Source: Spirochaetota bacterium
GTDB lineage: Bacteria; Spirochaetota; UBA4802; JAFGDQ01
Direction of reading: 5' to 3'
Assembly (NCBI GenBank): GCA_043803405.1
Contig: JAZDKB010000018.1
Coordinates: 1-64,000, forward strand
Length of the DNA stretch: 64,000 nucleotides
Shown piece by piece: positions 34,847 through 47,752 of this stretch (position 1 is the first letter of the stretch; each line of letters opens with the position of its first letter). The notes beneath the pieces are model-generated. The model had not been told where the DNA came from. It searched no databases and worked only from the letters and a program-made list of their open reading frames with translations. A program made the translations under genes and the position numbers.

Positions 34847-36175
34847 ATGTCCAAAAAGAAAAATATATTTATGTGTATTTCGTGCGGCTCTGCGCATGCC
34901 AAATGGCTTGGCAGATGCCCGGAGTGCGGTGAATGGAATTCGATTGTTGAAACCGAATCCGCCGCGCCTGCGCGTGCAGGGAGAGAAAACAGGGTAGTTC
35001 CGTTATCTGACATTAAAACGGATGAATTGAAAAGAGTGAATACAGGCATTGAAGAGTTTGACCTGGTTTGCGGTGGCGGAATTGTGCCAGGATCAGTGAT
35101 ACTCATAAGCGGCGAGCCCGGGATAGGCAAGTCCACGCTCGCGCTTCAGATCGCGAGCACTTTTAAAACGTTATATGTTTCGGGCGAGGAGTCTGCCGTG
35201 CAGCTGCGGCACAGGGCGATAAGGCTTGGACTTGGAGCGGAAAACATACTTGTGCTGCAGAACGCCTGCGCAGAGGAAATTGTGAAAGCCGCGGGTCTGG
35301 AAAAATTCGGCTGCATTATCGCGGATTCGGTGCAGACGCTCTATACTTCCGGAATGCCAGGCTCGGCAGGATCAATTACGCAGATAAGGGAATCATCAGC
35401 GCGCCTTATAGAGCTTGCGAAAACAACGGGCATCCCCGTTATACTTATAGGCCACATAACTAAAGAAGGCAGCATTGCAGGGCCGAAAATACTGGAGCAT
35501 CTTGTTGACACTGTTCTTTATTTTGAGGGCGATTTTTCAAAAGAATTCCGAATGATACGCGCGTTAAAGAACAGGTTCGGTTCAGTGAATGAGATCGGCC
35601 TGTTCAGGATGACGGACGCAGGCCTTGCAGAGGTTAAGGATAAGAACAGCGTTTTTTTAAACTCGTTCAGCTCCAGCGCGCCTGGCAGCGCTATTTCCGC
35701 GGCTATTGAAGGATCGAGGACAATGCTTTTTGAGGTGCAGTCGCTGGTAGCGTTCACGAACTTTTCCAACCCGCGGCGCATGTCGGACGGATTCGACATA
35801 AACAGGCTTATACTATTGGCAGCTGTTCTTGAAAAGCACGGTTTTATGAAGCTTAACAGTTACGATGTCTTTATTAACCTTGCTGGCGGGTTCCAGGTAA
35901 ACGAAACCTGTGCGGACATGGCTGTTGCGATCGCGATAGTGTCCAGCCTTAAGGATAAGCCTGTGCCGCGCGATACAGGCTTTCTGGGAGAAATATCCCT
36001 GTCCGGAGAGATACGTCCTGTGTCGCAATGCGCAAGAAGGGCGCAGGAGTTCGCGAGATCGGGTTTCAAAAGAATAGTAGTGCCGGAAAATGACGCGTCC
36101 GAAGCAAAAAAGGCATTTAACCGCGAGATTGTTGCAGTAAAAACCATCTACGAAGCAATTGACCGCGTATTTTGA
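34847..36175 (+). CDS. radA: DNA repair protein RadA/Sms
   Basis: C4 zinc finger, GEPGIGKST and KNRFG motifs. Confidence 0.97.
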   Translation: MSKKKNIFMCISCGSAHAKWLGRCPECGEWNSIVETESAAPARAGRENRVVPLSDIKTDELKRVNTGIEEFDLVCGGGIVPGSVILISGEPGIGKSTLALQIASTFKTLYVSGEESAVQLRHRAIRLGLGAENILVLQNACAEEIVKAAGLEKFGCIIADSVQTLYTSGMPGSAGSITQIRESSARLIELAKTTGIPVILIGHITKEGSIAGPKILEHLVDTVLYFEGDFSKEFRMIRALKNRFGSVNEIGLFRMTDAGLAEVKDKNSVFLNSFSSSAPGSAISAAIEGSRTMLFEVQSLVAFTNFSNPRRMSDGFDINRLILLAAVLEKHGFMKLNSYDVFINLAGGFQVNETCADMAVAIAIVSSLKDKPVPRDTGFLGEISLSGEIRPVSQCARRAQEFARSGFKRIVVPENDASEAKKAFNREIVAVKTIYEAIDRVF

Positions 36176-36181
36176 TTAGTA

Positions 36182-36302
36182 ATCTGAACCATGATTTGCA
36201 TGATTAAAGGATTAGCATGATTGGCGTGTTTTTATGCAGTGCGTTGTTTGCTGATAAACTATGTTCTGGGAAAAAAGCGTTGTTAGCGGAAATCCCCGGC
36301 AA
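36182..36302 (+). repeat. Repeat family C (GxxExxY-associated), degenerate copy
   Basis: tctgaaccatgatttgcatgattaaaggattagcatgat...ttgtttgctg matches 47069 and 47627. Confidence 0.8.
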
Positions 36303-36309
36303 AATTTAT

Positions 36310-36545
36310 TCACACAAACGGGTTTTCAATTTTCACTCCGTCAACAACCTGGCCGTTCGCAAGGTCTTCAGTAAGCAATTTTTTTGCGCCGCTTTGAATT
36401 ACGGTCTGAATTATCCAATCTGAGTTTTTGCTTCCGCCATATTCAGTGGTTTGTTAATCTTTCAGGAAAATTTTATTGTCTTTCATGAAGTTCTTCTCTA
36501 GAAATCCCGATATGACCCCGCGTGCCGAAGTCATAGCCCTTTTTT
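36310..36545 (-). pseudogene. Decayed vapBC toxin-antitoxin remnant
   Basis: Minus-strand fragments: antitoxin C-terminus KGYDFGTRGHIGISREELHERQ*, overlapping MKDNKIFL, then KINKPLNMAEAK, then PIN C-terminus SGAKKLLTEDLANGQVVDGVKIENPFV*. Confidence 0.75.
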
Positions 36546-36604
36546 TCCTTAACGGATATGATGAAAATCTCTGTAAAATTCTCTAAATAATTAATTTTTT
36601 TTGA

Positions 36605-36629
36605 GGAATTTATTGGGATTTTTCCTACT
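36605..36629 (+). promoter_or_regulatory. Putative ECF-sigma promoter GGAAT-N15-CTACT
   Basis: Same motif and spacing at 40868-40892, upstream of the ECF sigma gene. Confidence 0.6.
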
Positions 36630-36679
36630 TAAGAAACAGGAAAAGTAAAATTACTTAAAATGTCAAATCAGGAGGATAT

Positions 36680-37561
36680 ATGAAAATTCGATTAATAATA
36701 TTGTTCAGTTCTATTGCTGTGATAATTGCATTTGCAGAATGCGGCGGTGGCGGCGGGGGAGACGATGGCGGAGGCGGAACAAACATCAACGTCACCTTTC
36801 TCGGCGTAACGCAAAGTGGCGGAACTTCAGGCACAGCAGATTCAACAGGATTGGTGCTTACATTTGACGCTGACCCGGCAACCATGACTGCGGATAATAT
36901 TGGTTTAACCGGAGCAGTAAAGGAAGGTATTCTATCAGGTACTGGAACAACAAGAACTCTTGCAATTTCGAACATCGGCGTTGCCAATGAAGAGACGGTA
37001 ACAGTAAGTATTACAAGTCCTGATGGATACACGATCACAGGTACGCCGCAGACTGCGGTAGTGTATAGATTACTCGCTATTGGTATGGATTATCTTGGAG
37101 GAAAAATAGCCTATATTCTACAATCCGGCGATCCGGGTTATGACGCCGGTGTACCACACGGGCTTATCGCAGCTACAGCAGATCAGAGTACGGGGATAGT
37201 ATGGGCATTGCCTGCATATCAGTCAACTTCAGTGCTGGGCGGGACAGGAACCGCACTCGGAACCGGCTCGGCAAATACTGACAAGATCATTGCACAGAAC
37301 GGAGTAGGAAGCACCTACGCCGCAGGGTTGGCGCGATCTTATAACGGTGGTGGCTACACTGATTGGTATCTGCCATCAAAAGATGAATTGAACAAACTAT
37401 ACCTTAATAGAGTAGCCATTGGTGGGTTCACTGATATCTACTATTGGAATTCGTCTGAGTCCCTTGCTAGCTACGCGTGGTTCCAGGATTTCTCCGATGG
37501 CACTCATAACGACAACCTAAAGCTCAATCCCGTCTATGTGCGTGCTGTCCGGTCTTTTTAA
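36680..37561 (+). CDS. Lipoprotein: Ig-like domain + DUF1566/C-lectin-like C-terminus (DGR target-like)
   Basis: Lipobox Cys followed by poly-Gly; DWYLPS.DEL and YYW.SSE...AW...F..G......K....VRAVRSF. Confidence 0.85.
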   Translation: MKIRLIILFSSIAVIIAFAECGGGGGGDDGGGGTNINVTFLGVTQSGGTSGTADSTGLVLTFDADPATMTADNIGLTGAVKEGILSGTGTTRTLAISNIGVANEETVTVSITSPDGYTITGTPQTAVVYRLLAIGMDYLGGKIAYILQSGDPGYDAGVPHGLIAATADQSTGIVWALPAYQSTSVLGGTGTALGTGSANTDKIIAQNGVGSTYAAGLARSYNGGGYTDWYLPSKDELNKLYLNRVAIGGFTDIYYWNSSESLASYAWFQDFSDGTHNDNLKLNPVYVRAVRSF

Positions 37562-37685
37562 AACTATTGGGATGAACTGAATCATTATAGCTCAGTAGTT
37601 ATTTTAAAATTTTATTTAGAAAGGAACGTATCGATGAGAATTATCTTAACGAAATTAATCATCAGTATTTTGGCAGCAATATTGT
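37544..37685 (+). repeat. ~140-bp direct repeat (gene 3' end + 72-bp spacer + next signal peptide), copy 1
   Basis: Nearly identical to 38726-38867. Confidence 0.93.
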
Positions 37686-38743
37686 TTAGCAGTTTCTTTG
37701 CATGCGGCGGCGGCGGGGGTGATTCAGAGAGCAGCGATAAAGCCATTACTGCTTTCGCGATTACAAGTCCGGCGGCAACCGGCTCTATTGATGAAAACGC
37801 GAAGACTATAGCCGTTACTGTTCCCTATGTGCCTTCGGTCACTGATTTGGTCGCGACATTTACCACTACCGGATCAAGCGTACAGGTGGGTTTAACGATA
37901 CAGGTAAGCGGCGCGACTGCCAATGATTTTACTTATCCGGTAGTCTATACTATAACCGCCGAGGATAATTCAACTGCGAACTATACAGTGACTGTGACTG
38001 TTGAATGTACTGTAATCTATAATGGGAATGGAAATACAAATGGAACAGTGCCAATTGCAAGCGCAGGCTATAACCAGGGCTCAACCGTAACCGTAGCACT
38101 CAACACCGGAAATCTTTTAAAGATAAATACCGGCGGGGTTTCATATAAATTCGACGGCTGGAATACGCAAGCAGATGGAAGCGGAACCGATTATGCTGCG
38201 GGCTCGGGAACGTTTATTATAAACGCAAATATTACATTATATGTGAAGTGGACTCCTTTTGCATTAAGAGATGTTGGCCCCGCAGGCGGACTGATATTCT
38301 ATGATAAAGGCAGTTATTCCGACAGCTGGCGGTATATGGAAGCTGCTCCAGGCGATCAACAATCTAAAAATTGGGGAACTTATGATTATACAGTACCAGG
38401 CGCTGACGGAACAGCAATCGGGACAGGGAAACAGAATACGCTTGATATCATTGCCGGAGACGCAGCAGCCGACAAAGCTGCAGATGAATGCGCTAATTAC
38501 AGTATCGTAAACAGCGGCGTTACCTTTGACGACTGGTTTCTCCCATCGTATGACGAAGTCGATCAGATGTATTTGAACTTAAAATCTCAAGGGATCGGTG
38601 GTTTCGATGCCGGTCAATATTACTGGAGTTCTTCGGAGTATGGTGTCATAAGTGCATGGGTAAAGTGGTTTGGCAATGGTGCCCCTGCGCATTGCACTAA
38701 GGCCGGCCCGGCTTGTTGTGTTCGCGCTGTCCGGTCGTTTTAA
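37634..38743 (+). CDS. Lipoprotein: Ig-like domain + InlB-B/Flg_new-like repeat + DUF1566-like C-terminus
   Basis: Lipobox FACGGG; KAITAF..T.P..TGSIDE; Y.GNG.T.G.VP and F.GWNTQADGSGT.Y; ends VRAVRSF. Confidence 0.85.
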   Translation: MRIILTKLIISILAAILFSSFFACGGGGGDSESSDKAITAFAITSPAATGSIDENAKTIAVTVPYVPSVTDLVATFTTTGSSVQVGLTIQVSGATANDFTYPVVYTITAEDNSTANYTVTVTVECTVIYNGNGNTNGTVPIASAGYNQGSTVTVALNTGNLLKINTGGVSYKFDGWNTQADGSGTDYAAGSGTFIINANITLYVKWTPFALRDVGPAGGLIFYDKGSYSDSWRYMEAAPGDQQSKNWGTYDYTVPGADGTAIGTGKQNTLDIIAGDAAADKAADECANYSIVNSGVTFDDWFLPSYDEVDQMYLNLKSQGIGGFDAGQYYWSSSEYGVISAWVKWFGNGAPAHCTKAGPACCVRAVRSF

Positions 38744-38867
38744 AACTATTGGGATGAACTGAATCATTATAGCTCAGTAGTTATTTTAAAATTTTATTTA
38801 GAAAGGAGCGTATCAATGAGAATTAACTTAACGAAATTAATCATCAGTATTTTAGCAGCAATATTGC
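38726..38867 (+). repeat. ~140-bp direct repeat, copy 2
   Basis: Nearly identical to 37544-37685. Confidence 0.93.
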
Positions 38868-40006
38868 TCGGAAGCTTTTTTGCCTGCGGAGGCGGGGATG
38901 ACGACGGCGGCACTGGAGGCGTAACAAACATCAACGTCACCTTTCTCAGCGCAACTCAGACAGGCGGTACTTCGGGCACAGCAGATTCAACAGGCCTTGT
39001 TTTAGAGTTTGACGCTGACCCGGCAACCATGACTGCGGATAATATTGGCTTAACCGGGGCTGTAAAGGAAGGTATTCTGTCTGGCAGCGGAACAATGAGA
39101 AGTCTTGCGATTTCAAATATCGGCGTTGCCAATGGAGCAACAGTAACAGTAACTATTACAAGTCCTGACGGATACACGATCACCGGCTCTCCGCAGACAG
39201 CGGTGATATACAGAGCGCCTGTTAACGTCACTTTTCTCAGCGCGACACAGACCGGCGGAACATCGGGTACAGCAGAATCAACCGGCCTGACGCTGGCCTT
39301 TGACGCTGACCCGGCAACTTTGACTGCGGATAATATCACTGTCAACGGGGCTGCAAAAGGAGCCCTGACCGGCACAGGAACCACGAGAAGTCTTGCGATT
39401 TCCGATATTAACGTTACCAATGAAGGGACTGTGATGATTACCATTACAAGTCCCTCCGGATATTCAATTACAGGCACACCAAAGACCGCGCTGGTGTACA
39501 GATTTACAGCTGCCAATATGACCATAGGCATGGACTACCGCGGAGGGAAGCTGGCATATATTCTTCAGGCCGGCGATCCCGGGTATGACGTAAATGTGCC
39601 GCATGGACTCATAGCGGCAGCAACTGACCAGAGTGGAGGAATCAACTGGGCTTTAGCAGCATATCAATCAACATCAGTGCCGGGCGGAACGGGCTGGACC
39701 CTCGGGACTGGTTCGGCAAATACGAATAACATTATAGCGCAAAACGGTGAAGGGAGTGCTTACGCAGCAGGTCTTGCCCGCGCATATAATGGCGGCGGCT
39801 ATTCAGATTGGTATCTGCCGTCGGCTGATGAGCTGAATATGCTATACCTTAACAGGGGACTTATCGGCGGTTTCAACAGTAGTTACTATTGGAGTTCGTC
39901 AGAGTACTTTGCTGACGGAGCGCGAATCCAGTATTTCGGCGATGGCACCCAGCTCGGCGGCAATAAGAATAATTACTGGCAAGTCCGGGCTGCCCGGTCC
40001 TTTTAA
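38816..40006 (+). CDS. Lipoprotein: two tandem Ig-like domains + DUF1566-like C-terminus
   Basis: Two NVTFLSATQTGGTSGTA repeats; C-terminus paralogous to 36680-37561; ends VRAARSF. Confidence 0.85.
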   Translation: MRINLTKLIISILAAILLGSFFACGGGDDDGGTGGVTNINVTFLSATQTGGTSGTADSTGLVLEFDADPATMTADNIGLTGAVKEGILSGSGTMRSLAISNIGVANGATVTVTITSPDGYTITGSPQTAVIYRAPVNVTFLSATQTGGTSGTAESTGLTLAFDADPATLTADNITVNGAAKGALTGTGTTRSLAISDINVTNEGTVMITITSPSGYSITGTPKTALVYRFTAANMTIGMDYRGGKLAYILQAGDPGYDVNVPHGLIAAATDQSGGINWALAAYQSTSVPGGTGWTLGTGSANTNNIIAQNGEGSAYAAGLARAYNGGGYSDWYLPSADELNMLYLNRGLIGGFNSSYYWSSSEYFADGARIQYFGDGTQLGGNKNNYWQVRAARSF

Positions 40007-40239
40007 GAATGATCGTGAGGTATCCATGTAAAGACGTATCATACCGCGCTTTTCGAGTCAGCAGGTTTAATGGCAATGGTGACCTGCCGGCTTCAAAGCT
40101 AATAGCTCCGTTGCCTAAAGCTGCAGCCTTCGGATTCCAGGGTTATATGTCCGCAAGCTGAGCTATTAGTTTCACTTTTCAGGTTAAAAGCTCCAAATTT
40201 AAAGCTAATAGCTCCGGTTTCAAAGGTAAATACTTTCTT

Positions 40240-40550
40240 TCAGGCATTTTTAGCTTCGCCGTCTTCAGTTTTGCCGGTTTCATCCTGAGATTTTTTAAAC
40301 CTCGCAGAGAGATCATTGTAAATGGCCTCAGCCTTAGGCATGTTTGAGTCCTTGGCGTTTTTAACTGCATTGTAAAAAGACCTTGCCTCTTTGTACGCGT
40401 CCGCACCCGCGAGATGCCTGGTATCGGTGACACCCATAAGAAGCTGCTCAAGCGGTTTCTCGAATCCGCGTAAAAGTTCAACAGCATTCATGTCCCTTGT
40501 GAACTCAGCAGCATCAAGATACTTCGGAGCGAGCTCAGGGTTCTTCTTAC
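40240..40550 (-). pseudogene. Probably 5'-truncated hypothetical gene
   Basis: Protein-like frame KKNPELAPKYLDAAEFTRDM...AGADAYKEARSFYNAVK extends upstream of the ATG to an in-frame TGA with no start codon. Confidence 0.55.
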
Positions 40551-40867
40551 CTCATAAATTATTGATCTTGATTTTACCTGCGGGTAAACGCGTCCGTAAT
40601 GTCCGCGCCTAAGGGGGCTCAAAAACCTGATTCGGAAAAATCGCCCAGCTTAACATATTTTATTTTTACGGCACAAGCATAATATTTTAAAAAGGATAAT
40701 TCTTTTTTATTGCCGGTACATAAGTATAACTTGTATCAACGGAACAGGAAATTACTCTCCGCAAAAAATTCGTTTCTGTGTGTTATTATATACTTGATAA
40801 AATGAGTCGAATTTTATATGAAGGGAGAGGTTATTTTTGCTAAATTATATTATTTTAAAATTTTTGG

Positions 40868-40892
40868 GGAATTTTTCCCAGTTTTTTCTACT
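40868..40892 (+). promoter_or_regulatory. Putative autoregulated ECF promoter GGAAT-N15-CTACT
   Basis: Matches 36605-36629; ends 28 nt upstream of the likely sigma start codon. Confidence 0.6.
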
Positions 40893-40920
40893 ATACATTC
40901 GTAAAGCAAAGGTGCTTACA

Positions 40921-41457
40921 TTGAGACTTTCAGATCCAAAGGTTGAAAATTTTGACAGGATTTATAATTCGTTTTACTCGCTGGTGTTCAGCATTATTTT
41001 TTCAAAGGTAAACAACTATCACGATGCTGAAGATATTTGCCAGGAGGTTTTTCTCAGGTTTTACAACAAGCTTGACGAGATAGAAAATCCGAGGAAATGG
41101 CTTTTAGGATGTCTGCGCATCGTTGTGCTGGATTTTTACAAACAGAAGAACAGGAAAGACGAAGATATTGACGTGCTTTTTAACGATATAAGCATGGGCT
41201 ATGTGAACGGCTTCAGAGAAGCGCGTGTAGTAATTTCTCAGATAATTGAGGAAGTGAGTGATGAGAGCGACAAAGAGGACGGTTCCGATGCTTCGATATT
41301 CAACCTTATAGCTATTTACAGATACAGTATAGTCGAAGCGAGCAGGCATTTAAAATTGAATTACAAACAGACAAGGTACAGGTATAACAGAATATGTGAA
41401 AAGATAATGTCCCGTCTGCGCGAAAGAGGGATAAAGGAACTGGGAGACCTGCTATGA
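40921..41457 (+). CDS. ECF (sigma-70 group 4) sigma factor; likely TTG start at 40921
   Basis: DAEDICQEVFLRF and RKWL region-2 motifs, C-terminal HTH-like segment; AAGGTG RBS. Confidence 0.9.
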   Translation: MRLSDPKVENFDRIYNSFYSLVFSIIFSKVNNYHDAEDICQEVFLRFYNKLDEIENPRKWLLGCLRIVVLDFYKQKNRKDEDIDVLFNDISMGYVNGFREARVVISQIIEEVSDESDKEDGSDASIFNLIAIYRYSIVEASRHLKLNYKQTRYRYNRICEKIMSRLRERGIKELGDLL

Positions 41458-42608
41458 AAGAATCTAAAAGATTAGGACAAATACTCGCAAAATATAAACT
41501 GACGTCCCCTGTTCCGTTTTTCAAAAGAAGAAAAATACTTAAATCGAAAAGGAAGATATTGGTAAAAATTTTAAAATCCGTAAGATATGATTCCGCGTTT
41601 GTGTCTGCCGCAGTGTATTTAAGCGACCTGTTCAACAGATTAGGTTTCAGATTAAGCCTTGCAGGCGGGGCAAGGGTCTTTGCCGGAGCTGCGGTTTTTT
41701 CGCTGTTCATTATTTTCTCGTCATCGCTGGCTCTTGTTTACAATTACGGCAGAGTGTCGCAGTTCATAATCGCGCTGACCGGCATAGGGGTGCAGGAATA
41801 CCGGAAAGGCTATGTTTTGGCAGCAAGAGGCGAACTGAAAATTATACGGGACGACAAAGAGCTTCCGGCTTTAAAAGCGAAAGACAGGCTGATCACAAGA
41901 GATGAGATTGTTACAGGCGCGGACGGGACAATAGTATTTCAACTGGAAAAGAAAACGCTGGTGCGGGTGATACCGGAAACCACGGTTAATGTTGAAATCG
42001 ATTTAAAAGTAAAGTCAATAGTCCTGCGCCAGGGCACTGTTCTTTGCAATGTTCAGGATATGGCAAAGGATGAGAAATTCAATGTAACAACGTTAAACGC
42101 AAGGGTTTTTGTTACAGGAACGCAGTTCAGCGTAACATACGAAAATAGGCAAACAACAATCACTGTAATTAAAGGGGCTGTACAGGCAGTCAATTTAATG
42201 ACTAATGAAACAATTCAGGTTGATGCAGGAAAGACTGCAGTGATTGCCGGAGAGGTGATCAATTTGAAAGACGCGGAAGAAGCGGAAAGAATTATCCTCC
42301 AAAAATTCGGCAAACTGGAATACATGAACAATGTTATTGATAAGAGCGATAAAGAAATGAATGACTTTGCTGAGGCGGTTTTAGCAACGGATAGGGAAAG
42401 TGAAGAACAAAAAGAAGATGAAATTAAAATAAGAACACTGGAAGATATTAAGCGTAAATACGGGAAGCTTGAAGAGGTACAGCTTTATAACGGACAAAGA
42501 TATACAGGGGCGATTATTTCCAGAGGCGGAATTTATTCTTTTATTACTGTAAAAGGCATTAAAAAGATTCCGGCAAAAGACGTGAAGAATGTGAGGATAA
42601 TAAAGTAG
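41454..42608 (+). CDS. FecR-domain transmembrane anti-sigma factor
   Basis: ATGA overlap with the sigma gene, one TM, D.IVTG.DG and V.T.NA.V.VTGTQF.V FecR motifs. Confidence 0.88.
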   Translation: MKESKRLGQILAKYKLTSPVPFFKRRKILKSKRKILVKILKSVRYDSAFVSAAVYLSDLFNRLGFRLSLAGGARVFAGAAVFSLFIIFSSSLALVYNYGRVSQFIIALTGIGVQEYRKGYVLAARGELKIIRDDKELPALKAKDRLITRDEIVTGADGTIVFQLEKKTLVRVIPETTVNVEIDLKVKSIVLRQGTVLCNVQDMAKDEKFNVTTLNARVFVTGTQFSVTYENRQTTITVIKGAVQAVNLMTNETIQVDAGKTAVIAGEVINLKDAEEAERIILQKFGKLEYMNNVIDKSDKEMNDFAEAVLATDRESEEQKEDEIKIRTLEDIKRKYGKLEEVQLYNGQRYTGAIISRGGIYSFITVKGIKKIPAKDVKNVRIIK

Positions 42609-42707
42609 ACGCTCTTTAAAGGGAAAGCAACCTATACTGCTAAGATTGTTCCCCCTGTTAAGAGGGAAAGCCGGCCGCAGGTCGGAAGGGGGTTTCGGAG
42701 GCAAAAC

Positions 42708-43091
42708 ATGAAACTAAATTTAAAACGAATAATTATTATCAGCCTGATACTGGCTGTGCTTTTTCTCTTGGCCGGTTTATTTCTATTGTTATTCAGCAGC
42801 ACAAACGAAAATAAAACCGCAATCACTAAGCAGCCTGCTGATACTATAAGTATAGCAGGGAAAAAGAATACTCCGAAACAATCCCTGGAGGAAACTTATA
42901 AAAACGTTAAGTTTAATTCCAACGAGGAAATAAAAAGGGAATTCGGCAGGGTTGAGATCGTTACTCTTTTCAGCGGTAAAGAGTACGCAGGCTTTGTGCT
43001 TACAGTTGACGATTTTTACAGAATGGTGACTGTAGGCGGATATAAAAAAATACCGATGAAAGATGTAAAATGCAGGACAATACTGGAATAA
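42708..43091 (+). CDS. Small membrane-anchored protein carrying the locus-shared C-terminal domain
   Basis: EEIKREFGRVEIVTLFSGKEYAG matches the C-termini of the flanking FecR proteins. Confidence 0.8.
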   Translation: MKLNLKRIIIISLILAVLFLLAGLFLLLFSSTNENKTAITKQPADTISIAGKKNTPKQSLEETYKNVKFNSNEEIKREFGRVEIVTLFSGKEYAGFVLTVDDFYRMVTVGGYKKIPMKDVKCRTILE

Positions 43092-43133
43092 TTTTAAAAG
43101 GCATAGATGAAAGATGAATAAAGGAGAAATATT

Positions 43134-44033
43134 ATGATAGCGCTAAAAAAACAGGTAATGTCATTCGCAGTAATAACTGCAGCAATGCTTATAGCTTTTT
43201 CTGGATGCGGCAAAAAGGAGGCCAATGAAAAGGCTGTTGTTACGTTTGTTCTGGGCGAAGTTACAATACAGCGCAAAAGCGATATTCGTAAAGCTGAAGT
43301 ACGCGATGTGTTAACCGACGGGGATATTGTTGTGACCGGAGAGAAATCGTACATTGTTGTCCAGATGGGAGACGCTCTTGTGTTCAGAGTTGAAGCTGAA
43401 TCGAAAATGGAAATCGGTTCTATAACCGAATACGGCAAAAACGAGCTTAATTTAACCGAAGGCCTGGTATTGTCAAAACTTGCAAAACTTAAGAAAGGCG
43501 AGCAGTATATCATTAAAACTCCCACTGCGACTGCATCTGTGCGCGGCACTGTTTTTTTTACGGAATATAATAACAGCGTCGCTAAAGTGGCTGTTGCCGA
43601 AGGCAAAGTAAACATAAAGCATTTATCTTCGGAAAAGGAAACCCAGGCTGAGGCAGATGCTGCTGCTGTGGTTACGGACAGTATAAACACTCGAAAAACT
43701 GATACTGTTGAAAAGCTTATCCTGCGGAAAATTCAGGAGACTGCAGTGATTGAAAATATAAATTCTATAGGCAAAGAGCAGCTTGAAAATGAAGGTAACA
43801 GGATATTCGAGAATGATATCCGCATTGATAAAAAAATAGATAAGCTTCTGAAAAAATCGATGACCCTTGATGAAATAAAATCCGAATACGGCAGGGTTGA
43901 TGTTGTAAAGCTTTATACAGGCAAAATTTACAGAGGCGCAATCTTATCGCGCGGAAATAAAGTAAAGATGATAACTCCTGATGGGACAATCGAAATAGAA
44001 TCAAAAAGCATTAAACAAACAGGATCGCGTTAA
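43134..44033 (+). CDS. FecR-domain lipoprotein (LipL45-like)
   Basis: Lipobox FSGC; AVVTFVLGEV and TPTATASVRGTVF motifs. Confidence 0.85.
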   Translation: MIALKKQVMSFAVITAAMLIAFSGCGKKEANEKAVVTFVLGEVTIQRKSDIRKAEVRDVLTDGDIVVTGEKSYIVVQMGDALVFRVEAESKMEIGSITEYGKNELNLTEGLVLSKLAKLKKGEQYIIKTPTATASVRGTVFFTEYNNSVAKVAVAEGKVNIKHLSSEKETQAEADAAAVVTDSINTRKTDTVEKLILRKIQETAVIENINSIGKEQLENEGNRIFENDIRIDKKIDKLLKKSMTLDEIKSEYGRVDVVKLYTGKIYRGAILSRGNKVKMITPDGTIEIESKSIKQTGSR

Positions 44034-44051
44034 AGGAGAGAGTGCCGGCAA

Positions 44052-45479
44052 ATGAAACTTACTTACAGCAAAGCGGCAATTATCATACAATTAATTTTGT
44101 TGCTTTTTTATGCCGGTGATCTTTTCGCTGAGTATATTTTTCTGAAGGACGGAAAGATAATTCAGGGAACCATAGTTGCGGACGAAGCGAATATAATTGC
44201 CGCAAAGGTCGGGGCCGAAACAAAAAAATACAGGCGCGCGGATATTATCCGCATACTTTATACCGATCTTACAATGGGCAGGGTTTACATTCAGAAGCGC
44301 GACGGCACAAGTGTTATTGCGTATATTGTGGATGAAGACAGGGCAGGTTATGTTTGCAGAAAGGAACTGTACGCTCCTGCCGAGTTCACTCTGAAAAGAA
44401 GCGACGTGCTTTTTGTCGCTGAGAAAAATCCGTCCGGCCTAAAGGGCGAAGCTGACATGACTTTTGTAAAGCTTGCCTGGTTCCCGCCTTATGACCCTGT
44501 AAGCGTGTATAATATTTACATGAAGACAGGCAGGCGCGGCAAATACGAAAAGGCCGGCAATGCTTCAAAAAAAGAAATTATAATTGAAAACCTTAAAAGC
44601 AATACCGAGTATTATTTTATTGTAAAGAGCGTTGACCGCGACGGTTACGAATCGTCGCCGAGCAATGAGCTTAAGATTACTACAAAGAACATTCCTCCGC
44701 TTCCGCCTAAAGACAGCTTTACTGAAGCAAAGCCGGACGGCAATTTTCTTTTAACATGGCCTTCGGCAGTTGATCCTGACGGAACAATAAAGGGATACCA
44801 CCTGTATAAAATACTTAACATGAAAACATCTTTTCTGGCTATTGTATCGAAAACGGCATATACGGTTTCCGCTAAAGAAAAATTCGACCGTATTTTTATT
44901 AAAAGCTTTGATAACCTGAATACAGAGTCGCTCGACAGCACCCCAACATACTTTGGCCCGCGCCCGGAGATCAATATCGCGGTGCAGCCGATTTACGCTA
45001 TGCCTATGCAGAATTTTAAAAAGGCCGCTGAATATGGCTACGGTGTTACCTTGCGCTGCGGTATGTCGAATTACTATTTCACAGGGCTGGATTTGAAACT
45101 GGAGGCTTCGTACATTTATTTTAAAGGCAAGGATGGTTTTGCAACGCCGGAAAACTCGGTTGATAGCATAGTCCTTGTTCCTGTCCTTTTTTCCGCAGGT
45201 TATTCGTTATATCCTTTCAAAGCCCTGCGGATTTCGCCTGCTGTGTATGCGGGTATATGCTATGTTCAAACCAGATACACTTATTTTGACATTCCGTCGT
45301 CTGCAAAGAAAACAGTTACAGACAAAGCATACGAGCCTGTTATAGGCGCAGGGATTTCAGTGCGCTGGGACATTGCGCCGTGGTTCTTTGGAGTGTCCGG
45401 CGACTACAGGTATATTTTCGAAGAGTCGAGGAAGATCGCTTTCTGGACAGTCGGGCCGTTTGCGGGAATGAAGTTTTAA
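44052..45479 (+). CDS. Secreted protein: two small beta domains + fibronectin type III + C-terminal outer-membrane beta-barrel
   Basis: IFLKDGKIIQG; L.SNTEYYF.VKSVD.DG.ES.PS (FN3); alternating beta strands ending ...GMKF. Confidence 0.8.
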   Translation: MKLTYSKAAIIIQLILLLFYAGDLFAEYIFLKDGKIIQGTIVADEANIIAAKVGAETKKYRRADIIRILYTDLTMGRVYIQKRDGTSVIAYIVDEDRAGYVCRKELYAPAEFTLKRSDVLFVAEKNPSGLKGEADMTFVKLAWFPPYDPVSVYNIYMKTGRRGKYEKAGNASKKEIIIENLKSNTEYYFIVKSVDRDGYESSPSNELKITTKNIPPLPPKDSFTEAKPDGNFLLTWPSAVDPDGTIKGYHLYKILNMKTSFLAIVSKTAYTVSAKEKFDRIFIKSFDNLNTESLDSTPTYFGPRPEINIAVQPIYAMPMQNFKKAAEYGYGVTLRCGMSNYYFTGLDLKLEASYIYFKGKDGFATPENSVDSIVLVPVLFSAGYSLYPFKALRISPAVYAGICYVQTRYTYFDIPSSAKKTVTDKAYEPVIGAGISVRWDIAPWFFGVSGDYRYIFEESRKIAFWTVGPFAGMKF

Positions 45480-47064: not shown

Positions 47065-47068
47065 GATA

Positions 47069-47216
47069 TCTGAACCGGGATTCGCAGGATTAAAGGATTA
47101 GCATGATCTGGCGTGTCTTTATGCGGTAGCTTGTTTGCTGTTGAACGATGGATGATAGCTGGACGTGGTTTGCAGAAATCCCGGCAATCCTTTAATCCTA
47201 TGAATCGTGGTTCAGA
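47069..47216. repeat. Repeat family C, full palindromic copy
   Basis: 31-bp arms tctgaaccgggattcgcaggattaaaggatt / aatcctttaatcctatgaatcgtggttcaga with 4 mismatches. Confidence 0.9.
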
Positions 47217-47259: not shown

Positions 47260-47649
47260 ATGAAGCACAGTGAGCTTACTGAAAAAATTATTGGCTGCGC
47301 TATGGAAGTGCATAAGGCTCTGGGTAATGGCTTCCAGGAAGTCATTTATCAAAGAGCGCTTGCTATTGAGTTTGCCTGTAAGGGCATATCCTTTGAAAGA
47401 GAAAAAGAAATGCCTATATATTACCGCGGAGAGAATATCGGCACGCGCAGGGTCGATTTTTTTGTAGAAAATCTTGTTATGCTGGAGCTTAAAGCTATTA
47501 CCACTCTTGAAGACGTCCATCTCGCACAGGCGCTTAATTATCTGGAAGCATATAAAATGGAGATAGGGTTACTGATTAATTTCGGTTCCAGAAGTCTGCA
47601 GTTTAAAAGGCTGCATAATAAAAAGATGAACCGGGATTCGCTGGATTAA
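47260..47649 (+). CDS. GxxExxY protein (PD-(D/E)XK nuclease-like)
   Basis: IIGCAMEVHKALGNGFQEVIYQRAL, R.DF.VE...LELK and QALNYL motifs. Confidence 0.93.
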   Translation: MKHSELTEKIIGCAMEVHKALGNGFQEVIYQRALAIEFACKGISFEREKEMPIYYRGENIGTRRVDFFVENLVMLELKAITTLEDVHLAQALNYLEAYKMEIGLLINFGSRSLQFKRLHNKKMNRDSLD

Positions 47650-47752
47650 GGGATTAGCATGATTTAGCGTGTCTTTATATGGTAGCTTGTTTGCTGTTGA
47701 ACGATGGATGACAACCGGGTGAAGTTTGCAGAAGTCCCGGCAATCCTTTAAT
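47627..47752 (+). repeat. Repeat family C copy overlapping the GxxExxY stop codon
   Basis: Direct repeat of 47071-47196. Confidence 0.88.

Follow-up and report, generated by a model that had tools for sequence, protein, structure and literature searches.

Category 'd' DGR targets, also called CLec2 and comprising the domains DUF1566 and DUF823 as well as Fib_succ_major, are exemplified by LdtA of Legionella pneumophila (PMC5758913). In that survey TvpA is placed with the FGE-sulfatase/CLec1 targets, a class apart from DUF1566/CLec2; up to 11 non-A differences are recorded in one target of an accepted DGR (Wu et al., PMC5758913), and ten DGRs are listed with 29 targets more than 100 kb away. 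Mining that is anchored on the RT overlooks such remote targets, as a further paper states (PMC8144416). Isolates of Treponema denticola that lack RT and TR keep 'target genes', interpreted as leftovers after loss of the core (PMC4891356). A head domain has also been described in Legionella Lcl, a trimeric, collagen-stalked glycosaminoglycan adhesin, the C-terminal domain of which (PDB 8Q4E/8QK8) has a C-type-lectin-like fold (PMC11162425); the available text of that structure paper mentions DGRs 0 times.

The window analysed here, that is, the whole stretch of 64,000 nt (positions 1-64000 of the contig), belongs to an assembly of 3.98 Mb in 54 contigs which is 94.4% complete. It contains, preceded by radA, a row of three genes on the + strand which are predicted to encode lipoproteins, each translation showing an N-terminal hydrophobic stretch and then a Cys. 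Gene 1 (36680..37561; 293 aa) combines a single Thr/Ser-rich stalk domain, probably Ig-like, with an Lcl_C/DUF1566 head; gene 2 (37634..38743; 369 aa) has a divergent Lcl_C-like head; gene 3 (38816..40006; 396 aa) has two stalk domains (38933-39214 and 39224-39502) and again an Lcl_C/DUF1566 head. A DUF1566 profile search, suggested by an initial annotation made from the sequence alone, was borne out for gene 1, which PF07603 (Lcl_C, formerly DUF1566) matches with 44.4 bits, above the cut-off, and nearly so for gene 3 (31.6 bits, E=2e-7, slightly below the cut-off of 34.9), while the profile has no match on gene 2. The profile matches of gene 2, to DUF5018-like and Listeria-Bacteroides repeat models, are both weak and below cut-off; its head is 39-46% identical to those of genes 1 and 3 (tblastn). 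The head of gene 1 matches residues 63-158 of the Lcl C-terminal domain (E=3e-9), which is by sequence its closest solved structure; scores with the Legionella Lcl adhesin profile NF046116 stay at 41 and 42.6 bits, where the cut-off is 500, and the translations of genes 1-3 contain no collagen-like repeat.

In protein clusters built at 90% identity genes 1, 2 and 3 are all singletons, and among the best 120 relatives listed none exceeds 73% identity, gene 1 itself excepted; two related proteins bear Spirochaetes labels. In 4/4 relatives read (G001, G002, G005, G006) radA is directly followed by a different gene of about 330 aa, so the lipoprotein row is lineage-specific at the radA site.

At their 3′ ends, genes 1 and 3 have what are probably former DGR variable regions (37439..37558, the best preserved of the three blocks, and 39884..40003, both + strand), and gene 2 ends in an eroded block resembling them (38618..38740, + strand) with one extra codon. 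The ten codon pairs quoted in the initial annotation, its ORF positions and the extra codon of gene 2 are all present in the sequence; the fixed scaffold it ascribed to the three genes is seen in genes 1 and 3 and breaks down in gene 2, where V and K stand in the place of A and Q. In being lipoproteins with a C-terminal DUF1566 head, variable last ~40 codons, an AAC/AAT-based template and optional appended stalk domains, the genes resemble the CLec2/LdtA targets as characterized in the survey cited above; they differ from them in having no cassette, in non-A drift within the blocks and in lacking a targeting signal. Of the two models that had been proposed, the closer is LdtA (DUF1566/CLec2) and not TvpA (FGE-sulfatase/CLec1) (PMC5758913).

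Scans for the head domain yielded 48 loci in genomes and 79 in metagenomes (the best 80 of 282 matches). When C-termini, 193 from 176 loci, were searched in an adenine-aware way, true TR/VR pairs came out in three of the loci, L101, L141 and L139. L101, from another, uncultured organism, is a complete cis cassette consisting of a lipoprotein target, a downstream motif with hairpin (11-bp GC), avd, TR (2400-2519) and an RT of 401 aa; its avd matches NF033474 with E=8e-19 and 68 bits (cut-off 80). Its target and gene 1 share 65% identity along the full length (295 columns) and have the same architecture; unlike genes 1-3, this target exists as many variants of one scaffold. The target family is hypervariable where expected: its 19 protein clusters are on average 97% identical over the scaffold and 61% over the final 40 residues. 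Kin of L101 are L141, L139, L095/L142, G052:C72 and L287, and a second complete cassette is found in G052, a genome of the host's order. The four TRs compared differ mutually by 12-32 of 120 nt; TRs of the L101-type lineage are conserved across hosts. A viral origin was considered and dropped, as among 354 viral matches the 80 best include none with an L101-lineage RT or Avd within 5 kb.

The template predicted in the initial annotation is found within the L101 TR, identical at 39/39 nt. Measured against this TR, gene 1 mismatches at 23/42 adenines and at 11/78 non-A positions (Fisher p=5e-6), gene 3 at 23/42 and 15/78 (Fisher p=2e-4), and the L101 target itself at 23/42 and 1/78; intact TR/VR pairs have 1-2 non-A mismatches. 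Under the adenine rule 109/120 positions of gene 1 are explained by the L101 TR. Protein conservation was allowed for by a null in which synonymous codons were resampled 20,000 times: at the 15 AAC/AAT codons of the TR the third base is kept in 14/15 cases in gene 1 and in 12/15 in gene 3, 5-6 being expected (P<=0.001). The adenine-biased mismatches to a real TR, together with these third bases, uphold for genes 1 and 3 the earlier description of the C-termini as variable in the DGR style. Gene 2, the block of which measures 126 nt, keeps 6/15 third bases (P=0.38), and even its best fit leaves 25 non-A mismatches; with the best-fit gap its A-bias gives a Fisher p=5e-4, and its non-A mismatches P=0.013-0.019 under the synonymous null. 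When the third-base test was applied to 166 C-termini, 92 were dropped and the 74 colinear with a 40-codon TR kept; 40/74 are significant at P<0.01, and in the other 34/74 the signature is absent at this threshold, so that it is not universal among such heads.

No closer template for gene 1 or gene 3 has come to light: among 10 distinct TRs, the sources of which include a sample of 401 genomes of the phylum, none gives fewer than 11 non-A mismatches. As the counts are made against foreign TRs which themselves differ by 12-32 nt, the 11-15 non-A mismatches overstate drift; only 5 bases in gene 1 and 7 in gene 3 fit none of the four TRs. Of the 68 positions that are non-A in all four, 13 are unlike between genes 1 and 3, and therefore one such template cannot write both. 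Gene 1 fits the L101 TR best (11 non-A mismatches versus 17-19 for the others). A fourth head in the genome, that of a paralog on contig C29, has a third-base signature of 12/15, retains the AT-rich downstream motif, has no hairpin and fits the L287/G052 type of TR best (11-12 non-A mismatches versus 16 for L101); therefore this genome bears traces of two types of template or more, which vindicates the earlier caveat that several templates might be involved.

A direct comparison of genes 1 and 3 goes beyond chance. In the last 40 codons differences at codon positions 1+2 and 3 stand at 27:12, whereas the ratio over the 118 codons upstream is 34:75 (Fisher p=5e-5). The encoded residue is changed in 19/40 block codons versus 26/118 upstream (p=0.004), and among the changed codons the third base is kept in 12/19 in the block versus 7/26 upstream. 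Fourfold sites of the scaffold are saturated, both between gene 1 and gene 3 (34/49) and between gene 1 and L101 (35/49); inside the blocks fourfold divergence is lower (5/11 versus 34/49 upstream), a difference not significant alone (p=0.17), and the 3′ ends of the blocks show drift at synonymous sites. Because the scaffolds are saturated and yet the blocks still fit the TR, we infer that the blocks were rewritten after the scaffolds of the genes had diverged, the last overwriting falling well after that divergence.

The machinery for such rewriting is missing from the assembly. Its only RT, the single PF00078 match, is that of a group II intron (TIGR04416, 360 bits), and the genome's own RT was accordingly ruled out as the DGR enzyme, being a group II intron maturase. 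Thus no DGR RT is found in the 94.4%-complete assembly; the L101 RT has no tblastn match there (best E=0.2), PF22296 has 0 matches, the L101 Avd has no tblastn match, and NF033474 gives two weak matches inside long ORFs, at 15-16 bits versus a cut-off of 80. The AAC-rich copy beside an RT or Avd gene that had been expected elsewhere in the genome is not found in the assembly by any of three template searches: an adenine-aware scan of all contigs for a TR returned A-rich noise only, none of 41 AAC/AAT-rich windows of the assembly is TR-like, and of 5006 pairs the 7 that are A- or T-biased do not involve genes 1-3. The L101 RT matches 8/61 genomes searched, 0 among the 6 family relatives, being absent from 2/2 congeners as well as from the other four members (6/6 genomes). 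An assembly of 54 contigs and 94.4% completeness would miss a DGR carried by a piece that is mobile or unbinned. The contigs of one run, compared over 35500-41000, touched 5/30 bins and 0/3 blocks, which has no bearing on activity.

A signal for homing is likewise lacking next to the genes. In 4/4 intact cassettes that were folded, the stop codon is followed by an AT-rich motif and a GC hairpin; neither is present after genes 1, 2 and 3. The folds after the stop have -3.3 kcal/mol for gene 1 and -3.1 kcal/mol for gene 2 versus -8.8 to -19.7 kcal/mol in the four intact cassettes, and downstream of gene 3 there is only a long-loop fold of -9.8 kcal/mol. In Bordetella phage BPP-1 the hairpin is necessary for homing (PMC3240598), although this requirement comes from a different DGR. 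The 72-nt spacer that follows genes 1 and 2 was weighed as an alternative homing signal and rejected, as it has no copy in the other ~300 loci, is present at the most eroded block, that of gene 2, and is absent at gene 3; elsewhere in the genome there are just two weak matches of 29-42 nt to it. What the initial annotation called remote (trans) targets or relics is consequently retained in its second half: the genes look like relics, whereas the remote variant finds no TR, Avd, DGR RT, motif or hairpin and faces 11 and 15 non-A mismatches.

The place that the downstream motif, hairpin and avd hold in intact DGRs is occupied by the first copy of a 177-bp direct repeat (37537..37713, + strand), made up of the end of gene 1, the 72-nt spacer and the start of gene 2; the second copy (38719..38895, + strand) comprises the end of gene 2, the spacer and the start of gene 3. 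The copies are 91.5% identical and differ at 2/72 positions of the spacer. They flank the body of gene 2, and recombination between them would delete gene 2 while sparing its two neighbours. The stalk at the N-terminus of gene 1 and the first stalk of gene 3 are 84% identical, the stretch leading into the heads about 70%; as the stalks are closer than the stretch into the heads, and given the 177-bp repeats, the row was probably built when domains were duplicated and shuffled in recent times, the heads being older.

Decay is common in the L101-type head family. Downstream of 158 heads (7 of 165 were dropped as too short) a full avd is found in 6 cases, an avd cut by the contig end in 2, a truncated avd in 13, the motif only in 13 and none of these in 122, where, many contigs being short, 'none' does not equal absence from the genome. 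The L101 Avd matches 7/122 genomes of the order, namely one full-length, four truncated close relatives and two distant ones. Of 40 heads with a significant third-base signature, 34 have no avd within 600 nt, again with many contigs short, and this suggests that orphaned heads outnumber cassette-adjacent ones. In a tree of 154 heads without the variable block, made by a quick method, 84/151 inner branches are open; a grouping of genes 1 and 3 has support 82 and lies among heads of several phyla, and no donor can be named.

Taken together, genes 1 and 3 very probably have, at their 3′ ends, former and now frozen targets of a Legionella-type (DUF1566/CLec2) DGR, the machinery of which is missing, and genes 1-3 would most likely be orphaned DUF1566/CLec2 targets and not actively varying receptors. 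A cassette like L101, in which a target is joined by motif and hairpin downstream, avd, TR and RT, would have written adenine-randomised cDNA into the last ~40 codons of either head, at a time when the heads were already diverged; template, RT and avd may later have been lost, or the genes may have come without them. Local duplication or recombination of the 177-bp junction would then have made the three-gene row, leaving no targeting signal, and ordinary substitutions would have accumulated since, fewest in gene 1, most in gene 2. In their present form the proteins would be a fixed set of surface-anchored lectin-fold binders with predicted stalks of varied length. A precedent is offered by the T. 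denticola leftovers, which are also spirochaete lipoproteins, several per genome, differing from the TR of another strain mostly at adenines, and of which isolate SP32 has two template types in a single genome. Those targets (PMC4891356) are FGE-sulfatase/CLec1 proteins close to a TR of their own species (19/21 changes at A in the example given), in contrast to the region studied here with its DUF1566 head, a TR from another organism and more drift.

It is improbable that an unassembled or unbinned part of the genome has a DGR which to this day diversifies gene 1, gene 3 or both in trans. In favour of it, the assembly is 94.4% complete, remote targets do exist, as the 29 targets of 10 DGRs in the survey illustrate (PMC5758913), and as few as 5 bases of gene 1 are left unexplained by any of the four TRs. 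Such a DGR would have to be reconciled with the 13/68 shared non-A positions at which genes 1 and 3 differ and which a single template cannot write, with the synonymous drift at the 3′ ends of the blocks, with the lack of motif and hairpin downstream of genes 1-3, and with the absence of a related RT in 6/6 family genomes. Quite improbable, too, is that the genes are dormant and not dead, so that an incoming DGR of the mobile lineage can re-adopt resident heads and diversification is episodic. The fresher blocks on saturated scaffolds, two template types in one genome (gene 1 with L101, C29 with L287/G052) and TRs conserved across hosts would all agree with this, but the same pattern results if every gene came in together with a cassette that it later lost, genes 1-3 retain no targeting hairpin, and recapture is seen in no case here.

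That the genes have no DGR history and are ordinary paralogs, the binding loops of which diverged under selection, is hardly credible. Their heads belong to a broad family which includes the Legionella Lcl adhesin, on which the structure paper is, in its available text, silent regarding DGRs (PMC11162425), and gene 2 has no significant third-base signature; agreement with the third bases of a non-coding template, however, is not explained by selection on protein (P<=0.001), and the predicted template exactly matches a real TR, so this explanation is already contradicted for genes 1 and 3, albeit not for gene 2. Somewhat speculative, and in our view doubtful, is an extension of the relic reading in which a single mobile DGR lineage would have visited the genome repeatedly and left its record there in layers, with template types numbering two or more: the heads of genes 1, 3 and 2 would have been rewritten at different times, kept after each visitor decayed, and then recombined into a row where the 177-bp repeats could excise or amplify gene 2. 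If this were true, the DGR would, in hit-and-run fashion, furnish hosts across phyla with fixed repertoires of surface receptors, and it could re-adopt resident genes.

On the preferred reading of frozen former targets, genes 1-3 appear to be a real and well-supported relic of a known system, most likely no longer varying; since leftover targets have already been described in T. denticola, the present case extends the phenomenon and does not change it. They offer a clean example of DGR remains and illustrate that such relics, which RT-anchored DGR finders would miss, are recognisable and can be ranked by decay from the third bases of codons alone. As orphaned heads apparently outnumber the cassette-adjacent ones, DGRs active in the past may lie behind the binding loops of many DUF1566 lipoproteins.

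The sole reverse transcriptase found in the window's own assembly is that of a group II intron maturase, intact-looking and lying on another contig (C9:277583-279034; L001:1165-2616). Heads of the Lcl_C/DUF1566 type are also encoded away from the three tandem genes, on other contigs of the assembly. At C29:26020-27000 (L003) a fourth head-bearing, lipoprotein-like gene, the expected start of which is without an ATG, is surrounded by clustered genes with predicted polysaccharide or glycosyltransferase functions; downstream of it the AT-rich motif is kept and the hairpin is absent. At C44:319-10982 (L004) some seven genes in a row are predicted to encode lipoproteins. Lcl_C domains occur in two of them (three PF07603 matches), and in the gene spanning 2352-2936 of this locus the block measures 117 nt.

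Within the window, the interval between radA and gene 1 holds an intergenic repeat of about 80 nt (36182-36263). The window has further copies of it at 47068-47150 and 47627-47706, and four or more of the other contigs carry it too. Beyond the three-gene row, an 83-aa ORF on the reverse strand (40240-40491) had no match in Pfam; its reading continues upstream beyond a stop codon, two other places in the genome hold relatives of it (44-47% identity), and it is probably a gene remnant. The row is also followed by genes for an ECF-type sigma factor, one or more FecR-domain proteins and a fibronectin-III/beta-barrel-like protein (40837-45479); in congeners, the sigma factor and radA are on separate contigs.

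Among related loci, the DGR target at L141:659-2530 has two head domains, the internal one also ending in a variable-region-like block and, judged by eye, resembling gene 2 in its N-terminal half. Fragments of avd, ending mostly at residue 40-78, lie downstream of the heads in eight loci (L054, L104, L106, L010, L016, L027, L042, and L100), with three inside 8 kb in L054. A DGR with a broken template repeat (TR) is present at L095:1398-1670 and L142:1408-1680; avd and RT are full (94% identical to L101, a complete cassette from another organism), the TR ends prematurely, about 18 codons in, and the target block is three codons longer. Judging from these features, this DGR is a cassette in the process of decay.
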